DNA of 64,000 bases from Candidatus Eiseniibacteriota bacterium. Lineage in GTDB: Bacteria > Eisenbacteria > RBG-16-71-46. The DNA is taken from positions 22,971 to 86,970 of the forward strand of contig JBGAOA010000005.1 of NCBI GenBank assembly GCA_044222065.1. The letters are read 5' to 3'. Both the position numbers and the translations under genes were made by a program. This document shows, one piece after another, positions 18,030-25,723 of the stretch; position 1 is the first letter of the stretch, and each line of letters opens with the position of its first letter. Under the pieces are notes generated by a model. That model was not told the DNA's origin. It worked only from the letters and a program-made list of their open reading frames with translations, and did no database searches.

Positions 18030-18347
18030 ATGCAGAGGTTGCGCAGCCAGCTCCTGATCGCACTGGTCCTCGCGGTCCTCAGCATTCCGACCGTGACCGG
18101 GATCGCGCACGCTCGAAAGAGGGTTCTTTCGGACGGCGGCGCGTCTACGTCACTGCCGGGAAGACAGTCCGGTGCGTTCTCGGGTGAACCGGACGGTCAC
18201 ACGGCCCCGCCGCAGAGCACTGCGCCGCGGCTGGGTGCTGGAGTCGCGGGTGGCGAAACGCAGCTGATGGTCGGCTCGAAGAGCCTCGGTCAGTGGTTTC
18301 GCTGGGCCGGCACGGTTTGGAAGGTGAGGTACCTGGCGCGTCACTAG
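18030..18347 (+). CDS. Small secreted protein (105 aa): signal peptide, SGEPD motif, Trp-rich amphipathic C-terminus
   Basis: SD AAGGAG at 18015-18020; MQRLRSQLLIALVLAVLSIPTVTGIAHA signal peptide; ends QWFRWAGTVWKVRYLARH. Confidence 0.65.
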   Translation: MQRLRSQLLIALVLAVLSIPTVTGIAHARKRVLSDGGASTSLPGRQSGAFSGEPDGHTAPPQSTAPRLGAGVAGGETQLMVGSKSLGQWFRWAGTVWKVRYLARH

Positions 18348-18452
18348 TGGTGCAACTCGATCGCGCCACCGCGCCAGTCTGTTCGCCAGACCACTCGGAA
18401 CGAACCGCCGAGTGGTCCAACCGGGTTCGTAGCACAACGAGGGTTCGTCACA

Positions 18453-21400
18453 GTGCAGAGAGCGATCCCCCCCGATCTTTCTCGTGCTGACTCGCTCGCG
18501 CCGAATTCCGTTCGGCAGCACGAAGCGATCGGTGATCTGCATCTGGCCGCCGACCAATTCGCCGGCGCCGTGGAGGCCTACTCCGCGGCCCTCGCCGAAC
18601 TGGGCGGCGAGCCGCGTTCGGAACGCGGCCGCCTGCTGCTCCGGCTCGCCGACGCTTCGATTCGCCGTTCCGACCTCGATCTGGCGCTGACCGCGCTCAA
18701 CGAGGCTCGGGGCATCGCGCGTCAGTCGGGCGACCTCGCCCTGTCCGCACGCGCTTCCGCGTTCTTCGTGATGGTGCACCTCGAGCGCGGCAACTATCGA
18801 CGAGCGCGCCGCTACGGCCTGTTCGCCTATCGCGTGCTGCGTGGCTCCGACGATCACCGGACCGTCGGCCACGTCGAACTGCACCTCGGCGTGTGCGCCG
18901 AGATGCTCGGACGCCGGCCCGAGGCGATCGAGTGGCTGCAGAACGCCGCAGCGACCTTCCGGCGCATCGACGACGTCGAAGGTCTGGTTTGCGCGCTGAA
19001 CGAACTCGGCATCGTCTACAAGAACATGCGCGAATGGCGTGAGGCGACTCGCTTCCTCGAACAGGCGCTGCGCCTCGACGAGCGCGCCGGGCTGTACGAG
19101 CGCATGCGGACGCACAATCAGAACCTCGGCCTGATTCGCTACCGTCTCGGCCAGTGGGATCTCGCGGAGGAGAACTTCCGTCAGTCGTTGCGCATCGCGC
19201 GCGAGACCGGGCACCAGGTTGGCGAAGCGATCGCGCTCCTCGCCTTCGGCATGCTGTACCGCCGCCGCCGCCAGCTCGGGCGCGCCGCGGAGCACTACCG
19301 TTCGGCGCTCGAGATCGCGGCGCCGCTCGGCGCGTGGCGCGAGGTCGCGCTCGCGCGCGAGTTCCTCGCCGAGATCGAACTCGACCGCGGCAATGGCGCG
19401 GGTGCCATGGCGCTCCTAGAGCCCGCGCTCGAGGACGCGAACGCGCGTGCGCCGGAAGGCGACATGGCGATGGAACTGTCCATTCGCGTCGGCATGGCGC
19501 ATCTCGCGAGCGGCCGCGCGGAGCCCGCGCAGCGTTACCTGCTGGCCGGCCTCGCACTGGCCGAGCAGCTCGGTGATCGCATCGAGTCCGCGATCGCTGA
19601 GCGCGCGCTCGGACGGCTCGAGGCGACGCGCGGCAACGCCGCCGCCTTCGAGACGCGCATTCGTTCGGCCGCCTCGTGCTTCGAGCAACTCGGTGAGACC
19701 TACGAACTCGCGCTCACGCTTGCGACCTGGGCCGAGGGCGCGTTCCTGCTGCCGACGAGCACACGCCTCAAGCTGCTGCTCGAACCGGTCGGCGACGCGG
19801 CCCGACGCGCGGCGACGCTGTTCCGCCAGCTCGGCATCCCATCGCTCGCCGCCGAGTGCTACCTGAACCTTTCGCGGCTCGAGTCCGAACGCGAACACTT
19901 CGATTTCGCGCTCGGTCTGCTGGAGCAGGCCGAGTCGTGGCTCGCAGAATCCGAGGATCCCGACGTCGCGGAGCGCGCGGAAGCGCTGCGGCGCGATCTC
20001 GAGCGCCAGTACGTCGCAGTCTCGCTCTCGACCTGCAACGAATTCCGTGCGCTCGAAGACGCGAACCGGCTGTTCCGCGAGACCGCGGACATGGATGGTC
20101 TGCTGAACCAGGCGGTGCGGCTCGCCGTCGAACACGCCGGCGGTGACCGCGGATTCGTCGCGTTCACGAACGGCGGCGCGCGGCTCGACGTCGTCGCGCA
20201 GCACGGACTCGGACGCGAACGTGCGCGCCGCATCCTGCGCGTGCTCGAACAAGTCGGCGGCAGCCGGCTCGCTGAGAACGGTCCTCTGTTCTCGAGCCGA
20301 GTCACTGCCGATCCGCGGTTCTCGGTCTCGGTCGTGGACGCGCTCGATGGCGTCGGCTCGCTCGTCTGCGTCCCGCTCAACTTCCCATCGCAGTCGGTAG
20401 GACTCGTCTACGTGGATCGGCTCAACGACAGCCTGCTCGGCGCCTTCAAGCAGCGCGAGCTCAACCTGCTCGCCGTGCTCGCGAACAGCGCCGCGGTGGC
20501 GATCGTCGAAGCGCAGCGTTCACGCCTGCTCGAAGAGAATCGGCAGTTGCGTGATCGCCTCAAGCCGAGCCCCGGCATGGAGCGGGTGGTCTCTCAGTCC
20601 CGTGAGATCCAGAGCATCCTGCAGCTGCTGCAGAAGGTGAGCGACAGCCCGGCCACGGTGCTCTTCATGGGCGAGACTGGGACCGGCAAGGGGCTGCTCG
20701 CGCAGGTCGTGCACGAGAGCTCGGCGCGGCGCGACCGCCCCTTCATCCAGGTCAATTGCGCGGCGATCCCCGAGCACCTGCTCGAGAGCGAGCTGTTCGG
20801 CTACGTGCAGGGCGCCTTCACCGGCGCGATGCGCGACAAGACCGGGCTTTTCGAGGAGGCCGAAGGCGGGACGTTGTTCCTCGATGAGATCGAGAAGATT
20901 CCCGAGACCGTGCAGGCCAAGCTTCTCCACGTGCTGGATCGCAGCGAGATTCGCCCCGTCGGAGCGGCGCGCAGTCGACGCGTGGACACGCGAGTGATCT
21001 GCGCGACGGGATGCGATCTCCGCGATCGGATCCGGGAGCGCCGGTTCCTCGAGGACCTGTACTACCGGCTGAACGACATCACGGTGCGCGTGCCTCCGCT
21101 TCGCGAACGCCGCGAGGACATCCCGCTCCTCGCGCAGTACTTCCTCACGAGCTTCTCGCGCCAGATGGATCGTTCGATTGCGGGCTTCTCCGCGCCCGTG
21201 ATGCAGGCGCTGCTCGAGCACACGTGGCCCGGCAACGTGCGTGAGCTCGAGAAAACCGTGAAGCGCATGGTGGTGCTCGCGGATGACGGCGCGACGCTGG
21301 ACGTGGATCTTCTTCCGCCCGACCTCCGGGAGAGCACGCGGCCGGCGAGCACGGAGCTTCGGGTGGTGAGCCGCACGCTCAAGTCGAACGTCGTGAATCT

Positions 21401-21539
21401 CGAGCGGCAGCTGATCGCCGAGGCGCTCGAAAGAACCCGCTGGAACAAGACGCGGGCCGCGCGTGAACTCGGGCTCAGCTATCCGACCCTGCTCGCCAAG
21501 ATCCGGAGCTTCCAACTCGAGCGGCAGCGCGGCGGCTGA
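18453..21539 (+). CDS. TPR-repeat + GAF + sigma54 AAA+ enhancer-binding protein with Fis HTH (1028 aa)
   Basis: About 520 aa of TPR-like helical repeats, GAF (GDRGFV...CVPL...VGLVYVD), GETGTGKG, GAFTGA, WPGNVREL, NKTRAARELG. Confidence 0.93.
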   Translation: MQRAIPPDLSRADSLAPNSVRQHEAIGDLHLAADQFAGAVEAYSAALAELGGEPRSERGRLLLRLADASIRRSDLDLALTALNEARGIARQSGDLALSARASAFFVMVHLERGNYRRARRYGLFAYRVLRGSDDHRTVGHVELHLGVCAEMLGRRPEAIEWLQNAAATFRRIDDVEGLVCALNELGIVYKNMREWREATRFLEQALRLDERAGLYERMRTHNQNLGLIRYRLGQWDLAEENFRQSLRIARETGHQVGEAIALLAFGMLYRRRRQLGRAAEHYRSALEIAAPLGAWREVALAREFLAEIELDRGNGAGAMALLEPALEDANARAPEGDMAMELSIRVGMAHLASGRAEPAQRYLLAGLALAEQLGDRIESAIAERALGRLEATRGNAAAFETRIRSAASCFEQLGETYELALTLATWAEGAFLLPTSTRLKLLLEPVGDAARRAATLFRQLGIPSLAAECYLNLSRLESEREHFDFALGLLEQAESWLAESEDPDVAERAEALRRDLERQYVAVSLSTCNEFRALEDANRLFRETADMDGLLNQAVRLAVEHAGGDRGFVAFTNGGARLDVVAQHGLGRERARRILRVLEQVGGSRLAENGPLFSSRVTADPRFSVSVVDALDGVGSLVCVPLNFPSQSVGLVYVDRLNDSLLGAFKQRELNLLAVLANSAAVAIVEAQRSRLLEENRQLRDRLKPSPGMERVVSQSREIQSILQLLQKVSDSPATVLFMGETGTGKGLLAQVVHESSARRDRPFIQVNCAAIPEHLLESELFGYVQGAFTGAMRDKTGLFEEAEGGTLFLDEIEKIPETVQAKLLHVLDRSEIRPVGAARSRRVDTRVICATGCDLRDRIRERRFLEDLYYRLNDITVRVPPLRERREDIPLLAQYFLTSFSRQMDRSIAGFSAPVMQALLEHTWPGNVRELEKTVKRMVVLADDGATLDVDLLPPDLRESTRPASTELRVVSRTLKSNVVNLERQLIAEALERTRWNKTRAARELGLSYPTLLAKIRSFQLERQRGG

Positions 21540-21584
21540 CAAACAACTGAAGTCTCCGACTAGCAAGTCGCTTAATAGAAATCC

Positions 21585-21619
21585 CGAAGCCCCGCAGTCA
21601 CTTAGGCTGCGGGGCTTCG
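21585..21619 (+). terminator. Hairpin after the TPR-EBP gene
   Basis: CGAAGCCCCGCAGTC-ACTTA-GGCTGCGGGGCTTCG; no clear U-tract. Confidence 0.55.
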
Positions 21620-21707
21620 TCATGAAAGCGGCTTGAGGATTTCCGGTGCTTTCGTGGCTCGGAATCCTGCGCTTGTTGGATTTCGCCCATTCCAGTTAAT
21701 AATTGAT

Positions 21708-21763
21708 TAGCAAGCATTTAGGACATATTTGTGCGACGTCGCCGTTCATGGCACGACGAGTGC
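21708..21763 (+). promoter_or_regulatory. sigma54 promoter with upstream IHF-like site
   Basis: TGGCACGACGAGTGC (21749-21763) has correct GG/GC spacing. TAGCAAGCATTTA (21708-21720) is one mismatch from WATCAANNNNTTR and sits in an AT-rich patch. Confidence 0.65.
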
Positions 21764-21774
21764 CTATACGTGTG

Positions 21775-22110
21775 CCTCGGAGGGGGGGGACCTCCACAAA
21801 ATCCAGCAGAGCACCGCTGGAACACGATCTAGGCTAGCCGGCTCTGTAGGGCTCGGTCGAGGGTACGAGCCCCGTCATCCGACAACGTATCGAACCCTAC
21901 GTCCGGCTAGCTTGGAGTGAATTCAACGGTCCGGGAAGTGGCGGGCCTGGGTGAATCGACGAAGTTCGGTCCCGGTTATCTTCGCGCGATCCCCGCTCTG
22001 CGGCTTCCCGGCTTTTCTTGCAGTCGAGACACCGGCTTCACGCGATACAGGCCAGCACTGGGGGATGTCCAGGCTTGTGTCTGCGACCGAGGCCGGTGTC
22101 TCACTTCTTG
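21775..22110 (+). ncRNA. Putative structured non-coding RNA(s): two short and three long hairpins
   Basis: Stems 21828-21841/21903-21916, 21931-21938/22004-22011 and 22026-22039/22089-22102, with G-U pairs on the plus strand; directly downstream of the sigma54 promoter; no credible ORF. Confidence 0.55.
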
Positions 22111-22259
22111 GGCCCCGGCGGCTCCCCGACCGTGCACTGTGGCGCCCCTTGCACACCTGCGTCGCCGGCGCTGCGCGGCACCCCCTGAATCGCGGCGCAA
22201 ACCGCTCAAAGCGGCCCATTTTCACTGATCTTTCCCGGCCCCGAGCCCCCGCATCTCGC

Positions 22260-22274
22260 TGGCACGTGGGTTGC
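22260..22274 (+). promoter_or_regulatory. sigma54 promoter of the Fn3 lipoprotein gene
   Basis: TGGCACGTGGGTTGC is a perfect TGGCACG-N4-TTGC match. Confidence 0.75.
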
Positions 22275-22311
22275 CCTCCAAGCGATCGTCCATTTCACGC
22301 GAGGAGGACCC

Positions 22312-23145
22312 ATGAAAGCTCCAGTCCTGCTGATCGTCGCCGCCGCGCTGCTCGCGGGCTGTGATGACGATCATGTCTCGGCCCCCCGCGACGTCACCCC
22401 TCCGGCCGCGCCGCGGGGCGTCTACAGCGTGACCGGCGATCAGTCCGTGCGGGTCTCGTGGCTCGCGAACACCGAAATCGATGTGGCTGGCTATCGGATC
22501 TACCAGGGTCCTTGCGCCACCGGTCCTTCGTGCCCCTACGACCTCGTCGGCTCGACCACCGCCACGACCTACACCGTCACCGGACTTGCGAACGGCAGCA
22601 CCCGCTACTTCGCGGTTGCGGCGTTCGACCGCGCGGGAAATGAGAGTCCGCTGTCCTACGAAGACGTCTTCGACACGCCGCGCCCTGCCGGATTCGGCGC
22701 GACGCTGGGTGATGCGGTGGACGAGCCTGCGATCAGCGGCTGGGACTTCTCCGCCGCCTCGCGCCGGGCGTGGGACCACGCGGAGACCGACGTGTACTTC
22801 AGCTACTCCGGCGGCGTCTTCCGAATGATCGCGCCCTTCACGGATACGGACATCCAGGACGCGGGATATGCGGCGAGCCTCGATGCCGTGGACTTCGCTC
22901 CCACGAGCGGCTGGTCGCCGACGGGTACGGTCGAACTGATCCCCGGACACAACTACATCGTGTGGACGTACGACGACCATTACGCCAAGTTCCGCGTCAC
23001 CGCGCTCGGGCCGTCGCCCGCCCGCGTGACGTTCGACTGGGCCTACCAGACCGCCACGAGCAACCGTGAGCTTCGGGCGCGGCGCGCACCTCACGAGGGT
23101 CCGCGCGTGCGTCGCGAGCTCGCGCAGCTCACGGGCATCCAATGA
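22312..23145 (+). CDS. Lipoprotein with fibronectin type III domain
   Basis: Lipobox LLAGC; PPAAPRG...VSW...GYRIY...GLANGSTRYFAVAAFDRAGNES. Confidence 0.8.
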   Translation: MKAPVLLIVAAALLAGCDDDHVSAPRDVTPPAAPRGVYSVTGDQSVRVSWLANTEIDVAGYRIYQGPCATGPSCPYDLVGSTTATTYTVTGLANGSTRYFAVAAFDRAGNESPLSYEDVFDTPRPAGFGATLGDAVDEPAISGWDFSAASRRAWDHAETDVYFSYSGGVFRMIAPFTDTDIQDAGYAASLDAVDFAPTSGWSPTGTVELIPGHNYIVWTYDDHYAKFRVTALGPSPARVTFDWAYQTATSNRELRARRAPHEGPRVRRELAQLTGIQ

Positions 23146-23321
23146 ACCGGGCGCTCCGCCCCGCCGCGGACGCGACGCGGCCCACGGGCACTGAAGGAAC
23201 CACCGGGCGCGGCACGACTGCCCGCCGCGCCGGACGCTCCAACCCGCGGGAACTCCGCGGGTCGGTGCAAGGTAGATTGGGCGGTCCGTCCGCGAGGCTC
23301 GACCTCGCGAGGAGGCATGCC

Positions 23322-24731
23322 ATGAATCGCACCGTCGTGCTGACCGCGCTCGGCCTCGCCCTCGCGGCCGCCGCCGCGGCTCCGGCCGGGGCGCGTGGCC
23401 TCGGCGTCGAGGTCTGGACCGACCGCGGCAACGACGCCGTCTACCAGCCGGGGGAGCGCTTGCAGGTGAAAGCGCGCACCTCGGATGACGCCTACCTGCT
23501 CGTCTACGAAATCGATGCCGAGGGCGAGATCCACGTGCTCTTCCCGTTCCGAGGACACCGCGACATGGTCCCGGGACACACGACGCTGCGCGTGCCCTCC
23601 GACGACGACGACGTGGACCTCGTCGTTCAGGAGCCGGTCGGTGAGTCGTTCCTCGTGGCGATCGCTTCGGAGAACGGTTTCCGCGACCTGCCGTGGTACC
23701 TGCGTCCGTACGACCCGGTCGGCGAGGCCAATGGCTTCGTCGGGCAGACCGAAGACGAAGAAGGTGTCACGAGCGACGGTCGCATCGTGGGCGACCCGTT
23801 CGTCGCGATGGAGCGCATCCGGCGTCGCGTGCTGCTCGATCCGGACGATCGCTCGTCCTTCGCGACCGACTACACCACGTACTTCGTGCACAACCAGGTC
23901 CGATACCCGCGCTATCTCTGCTACGACTGCCACCGGCCCGGCCGATGGGAGTGGTGGGACGGGTTCGACCCCTATTACACGAGCTGCTCCGTGTTCGACT
24001 TTCGGGTGAACTGGTCTTGGGCGTGGGGGCCGAGCTACTGGTTCGGCCGAGTTCCGTACTTCGTGTACGTCTATCGCCCCAGCTGCCCGCCGCGCTATCA
24101 GCACTGGGCGGGTTCGGGCACCTGGTACTCCTCGTGGGACGGCTGGCGCCATTGGAACGACTTGTGGGGCACGGGCACGCTCCGGCGCTACAAGTCCGCA
24201 CCGCCGACGGCCTACGTTCCGCCGACCAAGTTCCGCACCTCCGAGCGGCTGGGTCCCGCGCGCCAGTTGCCTCCGGGCTTCGTTCAGGACAGTCCGTCTC
24301 GCCGGTCGTTCGACCGTGCGCTGCCCCCCCGTGGCGGTGTGGCGCGCCGCGACGATCGGCAGGAATCCAGCGGGGAGCCGCGTCGCGAACGCGCCGCGGA
24401 TCGCGGCTGGGGACGCATCTTCGATCGCACCGAGGTCCGCCGCACGCCGGCCGCTCGCGCGCCGCAGGACGAGGGTTCGTCTCGTCCCGCGCCGTCGACC
24501 GACTACGGCCGGGGACGCGAGCGCGATTCGGGTGATTCGCGGCCGGCGCCGTCGTACAATCCGCCGCCTCAGAAGCAAGAGCCGCGGCACGAGCCCGCAC
24601 GCGAGCCGGCGCGCGAGCCCGCGCGCGAACAGCGCCACGAGCGGGCGCCCGATCCGCAGCCGCAAAAGGCATCGCCGCCACCCCCGCCGCCCAAGTCCGA
24701 TGGCGGAGGCGGGCGAGGAGGCAAGAGATAA
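23322..24731 (+). CDS. DUF4384-like exported protein with Trp/Tyr-rich middle region and disordered tail
   Basis: SD GGAGG; signal peptide; VEVWTDR...YQPGE...AYLLVYEIDAEG.IHVLFP; contains CYDCH. Confidence 0.75.
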   Translation: MNRTVVLTALGLALAAAAAAPAGARGLGVEVWTDRGNDAVYQPGERLQVKARTSDDAYLLVYEIDAEGEIHVLFPFRGHRDMVPGHTTLRVPSDDDDVDLVVQEPVGESFLVAIASENGFRDLPWYLRPYDPVGEANGFVGQTEDEEGVTSDGRIVGDPFVAMERIRRRVLLDPDDRSSFATDYTTYFVHNQVRYPRYLCYDCHRPGRWEWWDGFDPYYTSCSVFDFRVNWSWAWGPSYWFGRVPYFVYVYRPSCPPRYQHWAGSGTWYSSWDGWRHWNDLWGTGTLRRYKSAPPTAYVPPTKFRTSERLGPARQLPPGFVQDSPSRRSFDRALPPRGGVARRDDRQESSGEPRRERAADRGWGRIFDRTEVRRTPAARAPQDEGSSRPAPSTDYGRGRERDSGDSRPAPSYNPPPQKQEPRHEPAREPAREPAREQRHERAPDPQPQKASPPPPPPKSDGGGGRGGKR

Positions 24732-24805
24732 TCGTTCGAAGCGCGTGATGCGCGCGGGCGGCGCCGGAGGACCCGGCGCCGTTCCGTCATTCCGATCGAG
24801 GGTGC

Positions 24806-25723
24806 ATGAACGTCCGAAACGTCGCGCTGTTCGCATCACTCACCCTCGTCGCGCTCGCGGGCGTCGCGTCCGCTGGCACGCCGGGGTTCGCCTTCCTCGA
24901 GACGCCGAGCGGCGCCCGCGCGTCCGCGACCGGCGGCGCAGGCGTGACGCTCGCCGAAGGCGCCGAGGCCGCGTTCTGGAATCCCGCCGCGCTCGATCGC
25001 GCGGAACGCCTCGAGATCGCGGGAAGTCACTTCGAGATGTATCAGGCGCTGCGTCACGAGGACTTCGTGGTCGCGGGTCCGGCGTTCGGCGGCGGGATCG
25101 CGGCGTCGTTCCGCGCGCTCTATTCCGAGCCGATCGAGGAGCGTGACGATCTCGGCAACCTCGTCGGCACGTTCGGAGCGCACGACCTCGAGTTCGCGCT
25201 CGGCTACGGGGCGCGCGTCGCGAACGAGGTGCGCGTCGGACTCACCGGCGCGCTCGTACGCGAGCGCATCGCGGACAAGGCCGCGCAGACCTGGGCCGTG
25301 CACACCGGTCTCTCTTGGGACCCGGCACGCTGGCCGGGGCTGCGCCTCGCGGTCGCGGGGCAGAACCTCGGCCCGGCCGGCGCGTTCGCGCTCGATGGCG
25401 TGCGTGGCGAGGACGTCGCGCTACCGGCGGCCCTGCAGGGTGGAGCCTCGTACGCGCGCACCGTCGCGACGAGCTGGACGCTGCGCGGGGCGCTCGAAAC
25501 CCGGCTCACGCGCGGCCGAACGGGGATCGGCATCGTCGGCGCCGAGCTCTCGAATCCCGCGGGGCTCGCGGCGCGCGCCGGCGTGCGGCTGAACGACGAC
25601 GTTTCGTCGCTCGCGTTCGGCGTCGGCTACCGCGTGTCGTCGCTGCGCCTCGACTACGCCTACGTTCCTTCGCGACTCGACCTCGAGGACACGCACCGGC
25701 TGTCCTTCGCCGCACACTTCTGA
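24806..25723 (+). CDS. PorV/PorQ-like (UPF0164) outer-membrane beta-barrel
   Basis: AFLETPSGARA..GGA...AAFWNPAAL; C-terminal LDYAY...THRLSF. Confidence 0.8.
   Translation: MNVRNVALFASLTLVALAGVASAGTPGFAFLETPSGARASATGGAGVTLAEGAEAAFWNPAALDRAERLEIAGSHFEMYQALRHEDFVVAGPAFGGGIAASFRALYSEPIEERDDLGNLVGTFGAHDLEFALGYGARVANEVRVGLTGALVRERIADKAAQTWAVHTGLSWDPARWPGLRLAVAGQNLGPAGAFALDGVRGEDVALPAALQGGASYARTVATSWTLRGALETRLTRGRTGIGIVGAELSNPAGLAARAGVRLNDDVSSLAFGVGYRVSSLRLDYAYVPSRLDLEDTHRLSFAAHF

Follow-up and report, generated by a model that had tools for sequence, protein, structure and literature searches.

A structured RNA gene behind a TPR-type sigma-54 activator in Candidatus Eisenbacteria, with loops predicted to pair with the activator's own mRNA

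The stretch of Candidatus Eiseniibacteriota DNA analysed here (64,000 nucleotides; the window) contains the gene of a sigma-54-dependent activator and, directly downstream, a region in which an earlier note made from the letters of the sequence had proposed a novel, highly structured non-coding RNA, or a precursor processed into three small RNAs, as the output of that activator. The locus thus raises the questions of whether an RNA gene of this kind exists and on what such an RNA would act. Overall, we regard the RNA as the member of a new family that would operate in a circuit of a known type; its predicted target, the start of the activator mRNA, goes beyond the reading of the earlier note.

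The RNA gene, its transcription and its modules

The RNA gene occupies 21777..22110 on the plus strand (~330 nt), with a 5' end placed from the promoter spacing and a 3' end placed from a U-rich tract. Its promoter is the predicted sigma-54 -24/-12 element at 21749..21763 (+), with the sequence TGGCAC-N7-GC, and the hairpins and rods listed in the earlier note were all recovered. The first hairpin, GGAGG-GGGGGGA-CCUCC (21779..21795, +), is a near-universal element and carries the main predicted pairing loop. It is followed by a small hairpin (21802..21821, +), which varies in sequence among relatives and is missing from some of them, and by the long rod H1 (21828..21916, +), which ends in a three-way junction with two small hairpins and has a nearly invariant basal stem. 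H2 (21931..22011, +) is a variable slot of unconserved sequence. The H3 rod (22026..22102, +) bears the apical loop ACA-YYGGGGGA-UGU and runs into the U-rich tract that extends to 22110, the likely 3' end. TTCTTG was found after both H2 (22015-22020) and H3 (22105-22110), and a pyrimidine tract 3' of H3 is common among relatives.

The predicted folding energy of 21775-22115 was -168.2 kcal/mol (z -4.69), which none of 100 shuffled sequences equalled, against -143.8 kcal/mol for the minus strand; conserved G-U pairs also fit the plus strand, as had been suggested. The folding signal of the individual parts was highest for H1 (z -5.7) and H3 (-5.4), followed by the small hairpin (-3.3), H2 (-2.0) and the first hairpin (-1.7), and the G-run was predicted to be partly paired in the folded ensemble of the whole RNA. 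Covariation was assessed on plain MAFFT alignments, with structures drawn by hand. In H3 (49 sequences), 22 of 26 pairs displayed two-sided change, a value reached by none of 500 shuffles. In H1 (45 sequences), 89.8% of cells were paired and two-sided changes numbered 66, versus 23 in shuffles; 12 of 33 pairs covaried, a count equalled by 89 of 500 shuffles, and five of the 14 basal-stem pairs never varied. Slid pairing partners scored far worse for both rods. The H3 loop GGGGGATG was invariant in the 49 aligned sequences, which had themselves been picked by that motif.

Fourteen RNA runs from five studies contained 0.28-0.40 of the words of 21300-22600. Four runs, one per study from four studies and chosen because they contained the stretch, each gave one mismatch-free contig (21783-22064, 21791-22066, 21791-22093 and 21790-22065) carrying neither strand nor processing information. 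The contigs thus covered 21783-22093 in one piece, with ends that agree with the sigma-54 promoter and the U-rich tract and with empty flanks, no cover being obtained in these runs at 21448-21771 or 22096-22257. The next gene was represented by separate contigs, starting at 22299-22306. In run X1, contig depth was 36 for the RNA versus 7.5 for the next gene, depth being no ranking of expression. No joints inside the RNA or pile-ups of ends were listed in the four contigs, although contigs cannot exclude processing. Given the folding score, the covariation of H1 and H3 and these contigs, the RNA gene is confirmed as transcribed, folded and non-coding.

The three rods are not equivalent units. 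H2 shared no sequence with H1, H3 or H2 orthologues, and in the family it ranged from 75 to 218 nt in length, without sequence conservation and with a median z of about -1.2 (locus L038, for which there were no shuffles, is left out of the z-scores). The slot is occupied by a small gene in L038 and by an ATPase gene in genomes G108 and G109, and H3 was placed ~2 kb downstream by model matches in three of the five genomes of family f10. The H3 model gave one match per genome in 26 of 56 genomes and none in families f8, f11-f15 and f17. In the families without a match, the RNA looks like the first hairpin plus one rod, often with a T-tract; in f12 and f13, the final rod has a different loop. Since H2 is an unconserved, variable slot and H3 is absent from several families, the RNA is modular and not a three-unit array, with a 5' module (first hairpin and rod) that is near universal and an H3 present in part of the phylum. 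The proposal of three equivalent small RNAs was therefore not upheld: H2 is conserved in neither sequence nor length, and the RNA contigs run across H1, H2 and H3. As to the inserted genes themselves, the ATPase-like gene (~480 codons) lies directly 3' of the 5' RNA module and before H3 in L197 and L200 (G108 and G109); such a gene is placed likewise in the f10 loci L193, L199, L202 and L204. The gene at the H2 position of L038 (G027), within the RNA locus, encodes a Cys-rich, exported-looking small protein.

Distribution and genomic setting

A sigma-54 site followed after 12-17 nt by GGAGRGGGG was found in 177 of the 206 genomes that represent the phylum, Ca. Eisenbacteria with its kin, and most of them had a single match; a few of these matches are due to chance, and some of the misses are loop variants. 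The same pattern gave two matches in 23 outside genomes, both of non-canonical appearance. Among the 58 best orthologous loci (13 families), the first hairpin was present in 56, at 13-15 nt behind the sigma-54 site in 55 of these 56, the H3 loop GGGGGATG in 50, and the Fn3 lipoprotein gene downstream in 51. Metagenomes provided at least 120 matches, of which 80 were fetched; 70 had enough upstream DNA, and the 3' end of the activator gene lay directly upstream in 69 of the 70, bearing out the proposed link to the adjacent TPR activator. No second copy was detected in the bacterium's own genome (DNA search and H3 model), and viral contigs yielded no match to the RNA. The novelty claimed for the RNA also stood, because the RNA region had no match in Rfam 15 at E values up to 10; no match at the gathering threshold was obtained in 15 homologous and five second-lineage loci. 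The 6S RNA (RF00013) of the genome lies on another contig (63.9 bits). The RNA was not found among the papers listed in literature searches on the non-coding RNAs of Eisenbacteria and Zixibacteria; the RNA-motif lists of supplements could contain it unnamed.

A palindrome of the type TATMAA-N5-TTKAYA (21561..21577), 188 bp before the promoter, is a candidate activator-binding site. The strict pattern matched only once in the whole genome; with at least 10 of 12 positions retained, the palindrome was present at -205..-170 in 75 of 87 loci, with a second copy near -125 to -135 in 49 of the 87. In many families, this second copy lies ~63 bp downstream of the first. The activator stop codon is followed by a strong hairpin with the loop CACTTAG (21585..21619, +; z -8.4), likely the terminator of the activator gene; of 36 family loci, 21 have RCTTAS at -140..-160, CTTAG being conserved in the loop of the terminator-like hairpin. 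The IHF-like site of the earlier note is present, as part of two overlapping sites at 21696..21720 with one mismatch each to the IHF consensus, but it carries little weight by itself, with three such sites in the window versus 1.5 expected. Among 36 family loci, however, 19 have YAA-N4-TTG near -60/-40.

The next gene has its own sigma-54 promoter (22260..22274, +), as had been noted, and RNA cover ends before it, so the RNA is not the leader of that gene. The promoter serves an operon (22312-25723) of which the first gene encodes an Fn3-domain lipoprotein (22312..23145, +), followed by genes for a DUF4384 protein and a PorV/PorQ-family protein. Sigma-54 sites upstream of the Fn3 gene are also found in many Bacteroidota, Ignavibacteria and Poribacteria records. 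A TGT-N12-ACA element (22138..22155), outside the transcript, is a candidate upstream site of the second promoter. It recurs in many relatives (by eye) and has no RNA cover and no folding signal. Because the motif upstream of the second promoter is different, one and the same activator need not serve both promoters. Over 22138-22185, the element occurs with CACACCTG and later GCACAC, an arrangement recurrent before the second sigma-54 promoter.

The activator (18453..21539, +; 1028 aa) is a TPR-GAF-sigma54 AAA+-Fis HTH enhancer-binding protein (Pfam TPR_12, GAF, Sigma54_activat and HTH_8), for which the Pfam search gave no receiver domain match; orthologues were found across the class. A gene for a small protein of 105 aa (18030..18347, +) lies upstream, and its product has a signal-peptide-like N terminus, a G[DE]PD motif and a Trp-rich C-terminal helix. 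The protein belongs to no Pfam or NCBIfam family. Its counterparts lie upstream of the orthologues and also of paralogous TPR activators, and in 29 aligned members the G, P and D are invariant at a mean column identity of 26%. This mini-protein, for which export is predicted, may be the input signal of the TPR sensor. A small protein of this kind also precedes the activator in the second lineage described below, and the motif is doubled in some f10 and f17 copies. In another arrangement involving sigma-54 (G000, contig C125, 9284 and 10089), a response-regulator activator is followed by a pair of pilin-like genes, both of which have a sigma-54 promoter of their own.

The activator mRNA as predicted target, and competing readings

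The activator mRNA contains, at codons 4-8, a predicted GATC-C6-GATC hairpin (18464..18477, +), in which TCCCCCCC at 18466-18473 (codons 5-7) is complementary to the first loop over 8 bp and to the H3 loop over 7 bp. The C6 of this predicted target was predicted to be unpaired; across relatives, the hairpin around the C-run was 75% paired, with covariation not beyond that of shuffles. The first Pro codon was CCC in all 42 f1 and f3 orthologues, and the dicodon CCC CCC was present in 34 of 35 f1 orthologues, versus one of 30 Pro-Pro pairs in the bodies of their genes, with background frequencies of 6/157 in gene starts and 1.6% genome-wide. A T+C run as long occurred at only one of the 3262 called gene starts of the genome. 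The C-run is found outside the coding region, between the ribosome-binding site and the start codon, in f5, f6, f9 and some members of f16, so its conservation is not a protein constraint. A +1 frameshift or phase variation at the C-run was rejected as an explanation, given that the C-run has a constant length in f1 and lies outside the coding region in other families. Cis pairing of the C-run with GAGGGTTCG, predicted in a few f1 folds, was likewise rejected, because GAGGGTTCG is missing in f3, in which the C-run is kept. The f1 activator leader (18398-18446) has a conserved GAACCGCC...AACCGGG...GAGGGTTCG arrangement, and the H1 junction GGTCGAGGGTACGAG is similar to CGAGGGTTCG of the leader, which it may mimic towards a binding protein common to both.

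Pairing was scored as the best ungapped helix between a genome's own first hairpin and its activator start, for 95 of 101 start regions (six without an anchor were dropped). The activator start paired more strongly than the coding control in 13 of 18 families, and 10 paralogue start regions paired weakly (-5.3 to -14.0). Complementarity to the activator translation start was found in f1, f2, f3, f6, f9, f12, f13, most of f16 and both groups of the second lineage. Strong sites (<= -14 kcal/mol) were found in 1/5 members of f10, 2/7 of f11, 1/4 of f14 and 1/3 of f15, and in none of those of f18 (0/2), f7 (0/2), f4 (0/1) and f5 (0/1). As the loop is kept in families with a weak site or none, the RNA must have other targets or partners. 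A genome-wide target scan of the bacterium's own genome gave no specific enrichment, with noisy gene calling in which the activator's own start was mis-called. Just before the start of a gene for an exported-looking protein (G000, contig C41, 17198, minus strand), GGAGGTCCCCC forms an 11-nt complement of the 3' half of the first hairpin.

Changes in the RNA were matched by changes in the activator mRNA in several lineages. In f13, an altered RNA 5' end was accompanied in all three genomes by a 10-bp site that matches it and overlies the ribosome-binding site, and none of 92 other start regions was as good. The match was 13 bp in f12 (0/94 other start regions as good), which rests on one genome because the activator 5' ends of G099 and G100 were not found, and 12 bp in G081 (0/93). 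G092 and G089 had matches of 15 and 13 bp, respectively, with the site ~50 nt inside the gene in both. Seven of the 12 variant-loop genomes (G082, G053, G060, G054, G095, G096 and G098) had no specific fit, 8 to 66 of ~92 other start regions being as good. Kin genomes are not independent, and the matched changes correspond to about five lineage-level events.

Of five loci from outside the phylum, one is titled Zixiibacteriota and four are uncultured; all have the order of a small G-D-x-D protein, a TPR activator, a sigma-54 site, a structured RNA, a second sigma-54 site and an Fn3 gene. The H3 model had no match on the RNAs of second-lineage loci, which are therefore considered positional counterparts. 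An advance prediction that their GGUGGGG loop would match CCCCACC at the activator start failed in 5/5. In three of these first five loci, the first-hairpin loop matched activator codons 3-6. The set was extended to 53 loci, 46 of them usable (seven dropped), comprising group A (23) and group B (23), the members of which are kin and count as few events. In group A, the first-hairpin loop UCCCGUGCG matched codons 3-6 in 23/23, as predicted from three genomes, 20 of the 23 having been examined after the prediction was made; the match was found elsewhere in 0/23 controls and 1/95 windows of the Eisenbacteria phylum. The codons GCA CGG are invariant in this group, and the preceding Ser codon varies. 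In group B, the 5'-hairpin prediction failed, none of the 23 reaching -14 among the scores listed. The loop of a later hairpin, GGCGAG, matched CTCGCC just before the ribosome-binding site in 19/23, a match found after the fact; in controls, CTCGCC occurred in 4/23 in a window twice as long and in 0/23 group A leaders. The hairpin loop GGUGGGG is shared across L355-L407 (GTGGGG in 44/46), and many leaders of group B contain CC(A/G)C(C/T), a candidate for pairing with this loop by way of a wobble.

We consider it likely, from these sequence comparisons, that the RNA acts in trans and feeds back on its own activator, its G-rich loops pairing with the C-run at codons 5-7 in a LuxO-Qrr-like manner. 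The TPR-GAF enhancer-binding protein would bind the palindrome at -188 and fire the sigma-54 promoter, and the single ~330-nt transcript, seen as RNA contigs, folds into stable rods exposing G-rich loops, as the covariation supports. The first-hairpin loop, and probably also the H3 loop, would start loop-loop pairing with the C-run in the activator mRNA hairpin, as complementarity, the freezing of synonymous sites and the matched changes suggest. The ACCUCC arm could extend the duplex over the ribosome-binding site where the site abuts or covers it. Sites over the ribosome-binding site or in the first codons usually block initiation. The most likely outcome would be blocked translation and a damped activator, as with the Qrr RNAs on luxO; in f1, the start codon lies within the target hairpin, and pairing that opened this hairpin could activate instead. 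Hfq (PF17209) was not found in the bacterium's own genome (94% complete), and pairing is therefore probably helper-free. Other mRNA targets probably exist.

If the main role were a wider regulon or sponge, the G-loops silencing C-rich mRNA starts or soaking up C-rich small RNAs, with the activator as a side target, the near invariance of the first hairpin even in families without a site in the activator mRNA would be readily explained, and TCCCCC is indeed found at 65 of 3262 gene starts, at one of them as GGAGGTCCCCC. However, TCCCCC was no more enriched near starts than other C-runs, and the strongly changed loops (f13 and group A) track the activator mRNA, making this reading unlikely.

The transcript might also be cut into separate small RNAs, for example at the near-invariant basal stems by RNase III. 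Three products had been proposed, and two (5' module and H3) would be more plausible, but this reading appears quite unlikely. RNase III is present in the genome, the H1 basal stem is near-invariant, several families have the 5' module only, and G108, G109, L038 and (from model matches) three f10 genomes have a whole gene between the two modules. Pxr, an RNA of this kind of setting, is processed in steps, according to PMC10217877. Nevertheless, the contigs bridge H1-H2-H3 in 4/4 RNA runs, within the limits of contigs as evidence on processing, and H2 has no sequence in common with the other rods or with its orthologues. Maturation of this sort can hold together with feedback on the activator.

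A protein sponge like CsrB/RsmZ or CrcZ, with GGA loops titrating CsrA or another RNA-binding protein, is very unlikely to be the explanation. CsrA is encoded by the bacterium's own genome and by 179 of the 206 genomes of the phylum, and the H3 apex ACA..GGAUGU resembles the CsrA site, but some families keep the loops without CsrA: the first hairpin (8/8) and H3 (3/5) are found in f10, with CsrA in 0/8, and both loops are kept without a CsrA match in f4 and f6. The RNA of the window has six GGA and no ANGGA (0-5 ANGGA in 35 relatives), and no Hfq was detected in the 94% complete genome. Few functional CsrAs are predicted in Eisenbacteria in PMC13443453, for one reporter only. Sponging would also leave the matched mRNA changes unexplained. 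Finally, the notion of a coding region, the next gene's leader or chance folding of GC-rich DNA can be set aside almost entirely, because, although three ORFs of 100-137 codons overlap the RNA, the patchy matches over H3 are alike in all three frames and on either strand, the H1-to-H3 spacing spreads 11/10/15 over the three frames, ORF 21917-22228, named in the earlier note as a possible conserved protein, has no Pfam match and no conserved frame, RNA cover stops short of the second promoter, and H1 and H3 covary.

Feedback on the activator, the preferred reading, can be set within a broader one that we advance only tentatively. In a cassette spanning at least two uncultured two-membrane lineages, a TPR-sigma-54 activator would sense an exported mini-protein with G[DE]xD, and the dedicated output of the activator would be a large helper-independent RNA, with loops and activator start co-evolving as lock and key and modules released around inserted genes. 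Part of this same, still doubtful reading is a full turnover of loop and target between lineages, from G-run/C-run to UCCCGUGCG/CGCACGGGA and GGCGAG/CUCGCC.

Comparison with known systems

The RNA constitutes a conserved, expressed, single-copy family of a whole uncultured phylum, absent from Rfam 15. A trans-acting RNA and its target seldom display natural compensatory changes as legible as these, and the natural variants of loop and target are ready-made mutant pairs that can be tested without culturing the organism.

RRNPP systems (Rap-Phr, NprR-NprX, PlcR-PapR, and AimR-AimP with the AimX RNA) combine a gene for an exported pro-peptide with an adjacent gene for a cytoplasmic TPR regulator, and may have an RNA output. 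To our knowledge, they are known from Bacillota and their phages, and not with a sigma-54 ATPase. The locus resembles them in that a small, exported-looking peptide gene (export being predicted) adjoins the TPR regulator gene, in orthologues and paralogues alike. Should the mini-protein prove to be the signal, RRNPP-like peptide sensing and LuxO-Qrr-like RNA feedback would be combined in one cassette, in lineages whose regulation is little charted.

CrcZ of Pseudomonas is a large RNA transcribed from a sigma-54 promoter beside the gene of its activator, CbrB. CrcZ and CrcY titrate Hfq/Crc, and CsrB and RsmZ titrate CsrA, through repeated single-stranded motifs. Unlike these RNAs, the RNA described here has no repeated motifs, and it persists in genomes without CsrA.

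The Pxr small RNA of Myxococcus, which consists of stem-loops, lies directly downstream of the gene of the sigma-54 activator PxrR (Nla19) and has its own sigma-54 promoter, according to PMC5684412 and PMC5568312. The two loci share a sigma-54 promoter directly downstream of the activator gene, and this likeness is one of architecture only, as the earlier note had held: the Pxr model (RF01812, 109 positions) reached 26.9 bits, where the cut-off is 80, and its match (21525-21626) fell on the terminator hairpin, which precedes the promoter and lies outside the RNA. The Pxr consensus as shown contains no G-run loop, and PxrR is a two-component regulator, unlike the TPR activator.

In Vibrio, the sigma-54 enhancer-binding protein LuxO drives the small RNAs Qrr1-4, which repress luxO mRNA by pairing; Hfq takes part in the action of the Qrr RNAs, and phosphorylation serves as the switch of LuxO (PMC2632942). 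The locus described here likewise combines an activator with an RNA that it would drive and that is complementary to the activator's own translation start. Unlike the Qrr RNAs, this RNA is present in single copy, is ~330 nt long, has rigid rods with exposed loops and no Rfam match, and occurs in a genome in which Hfq was not found; unlike LuxO, the activator has a TPR-GAF sensor and no receiver domain match. For the circuit as a whole, a LuxO-Qrr-type loop is the closest working model.
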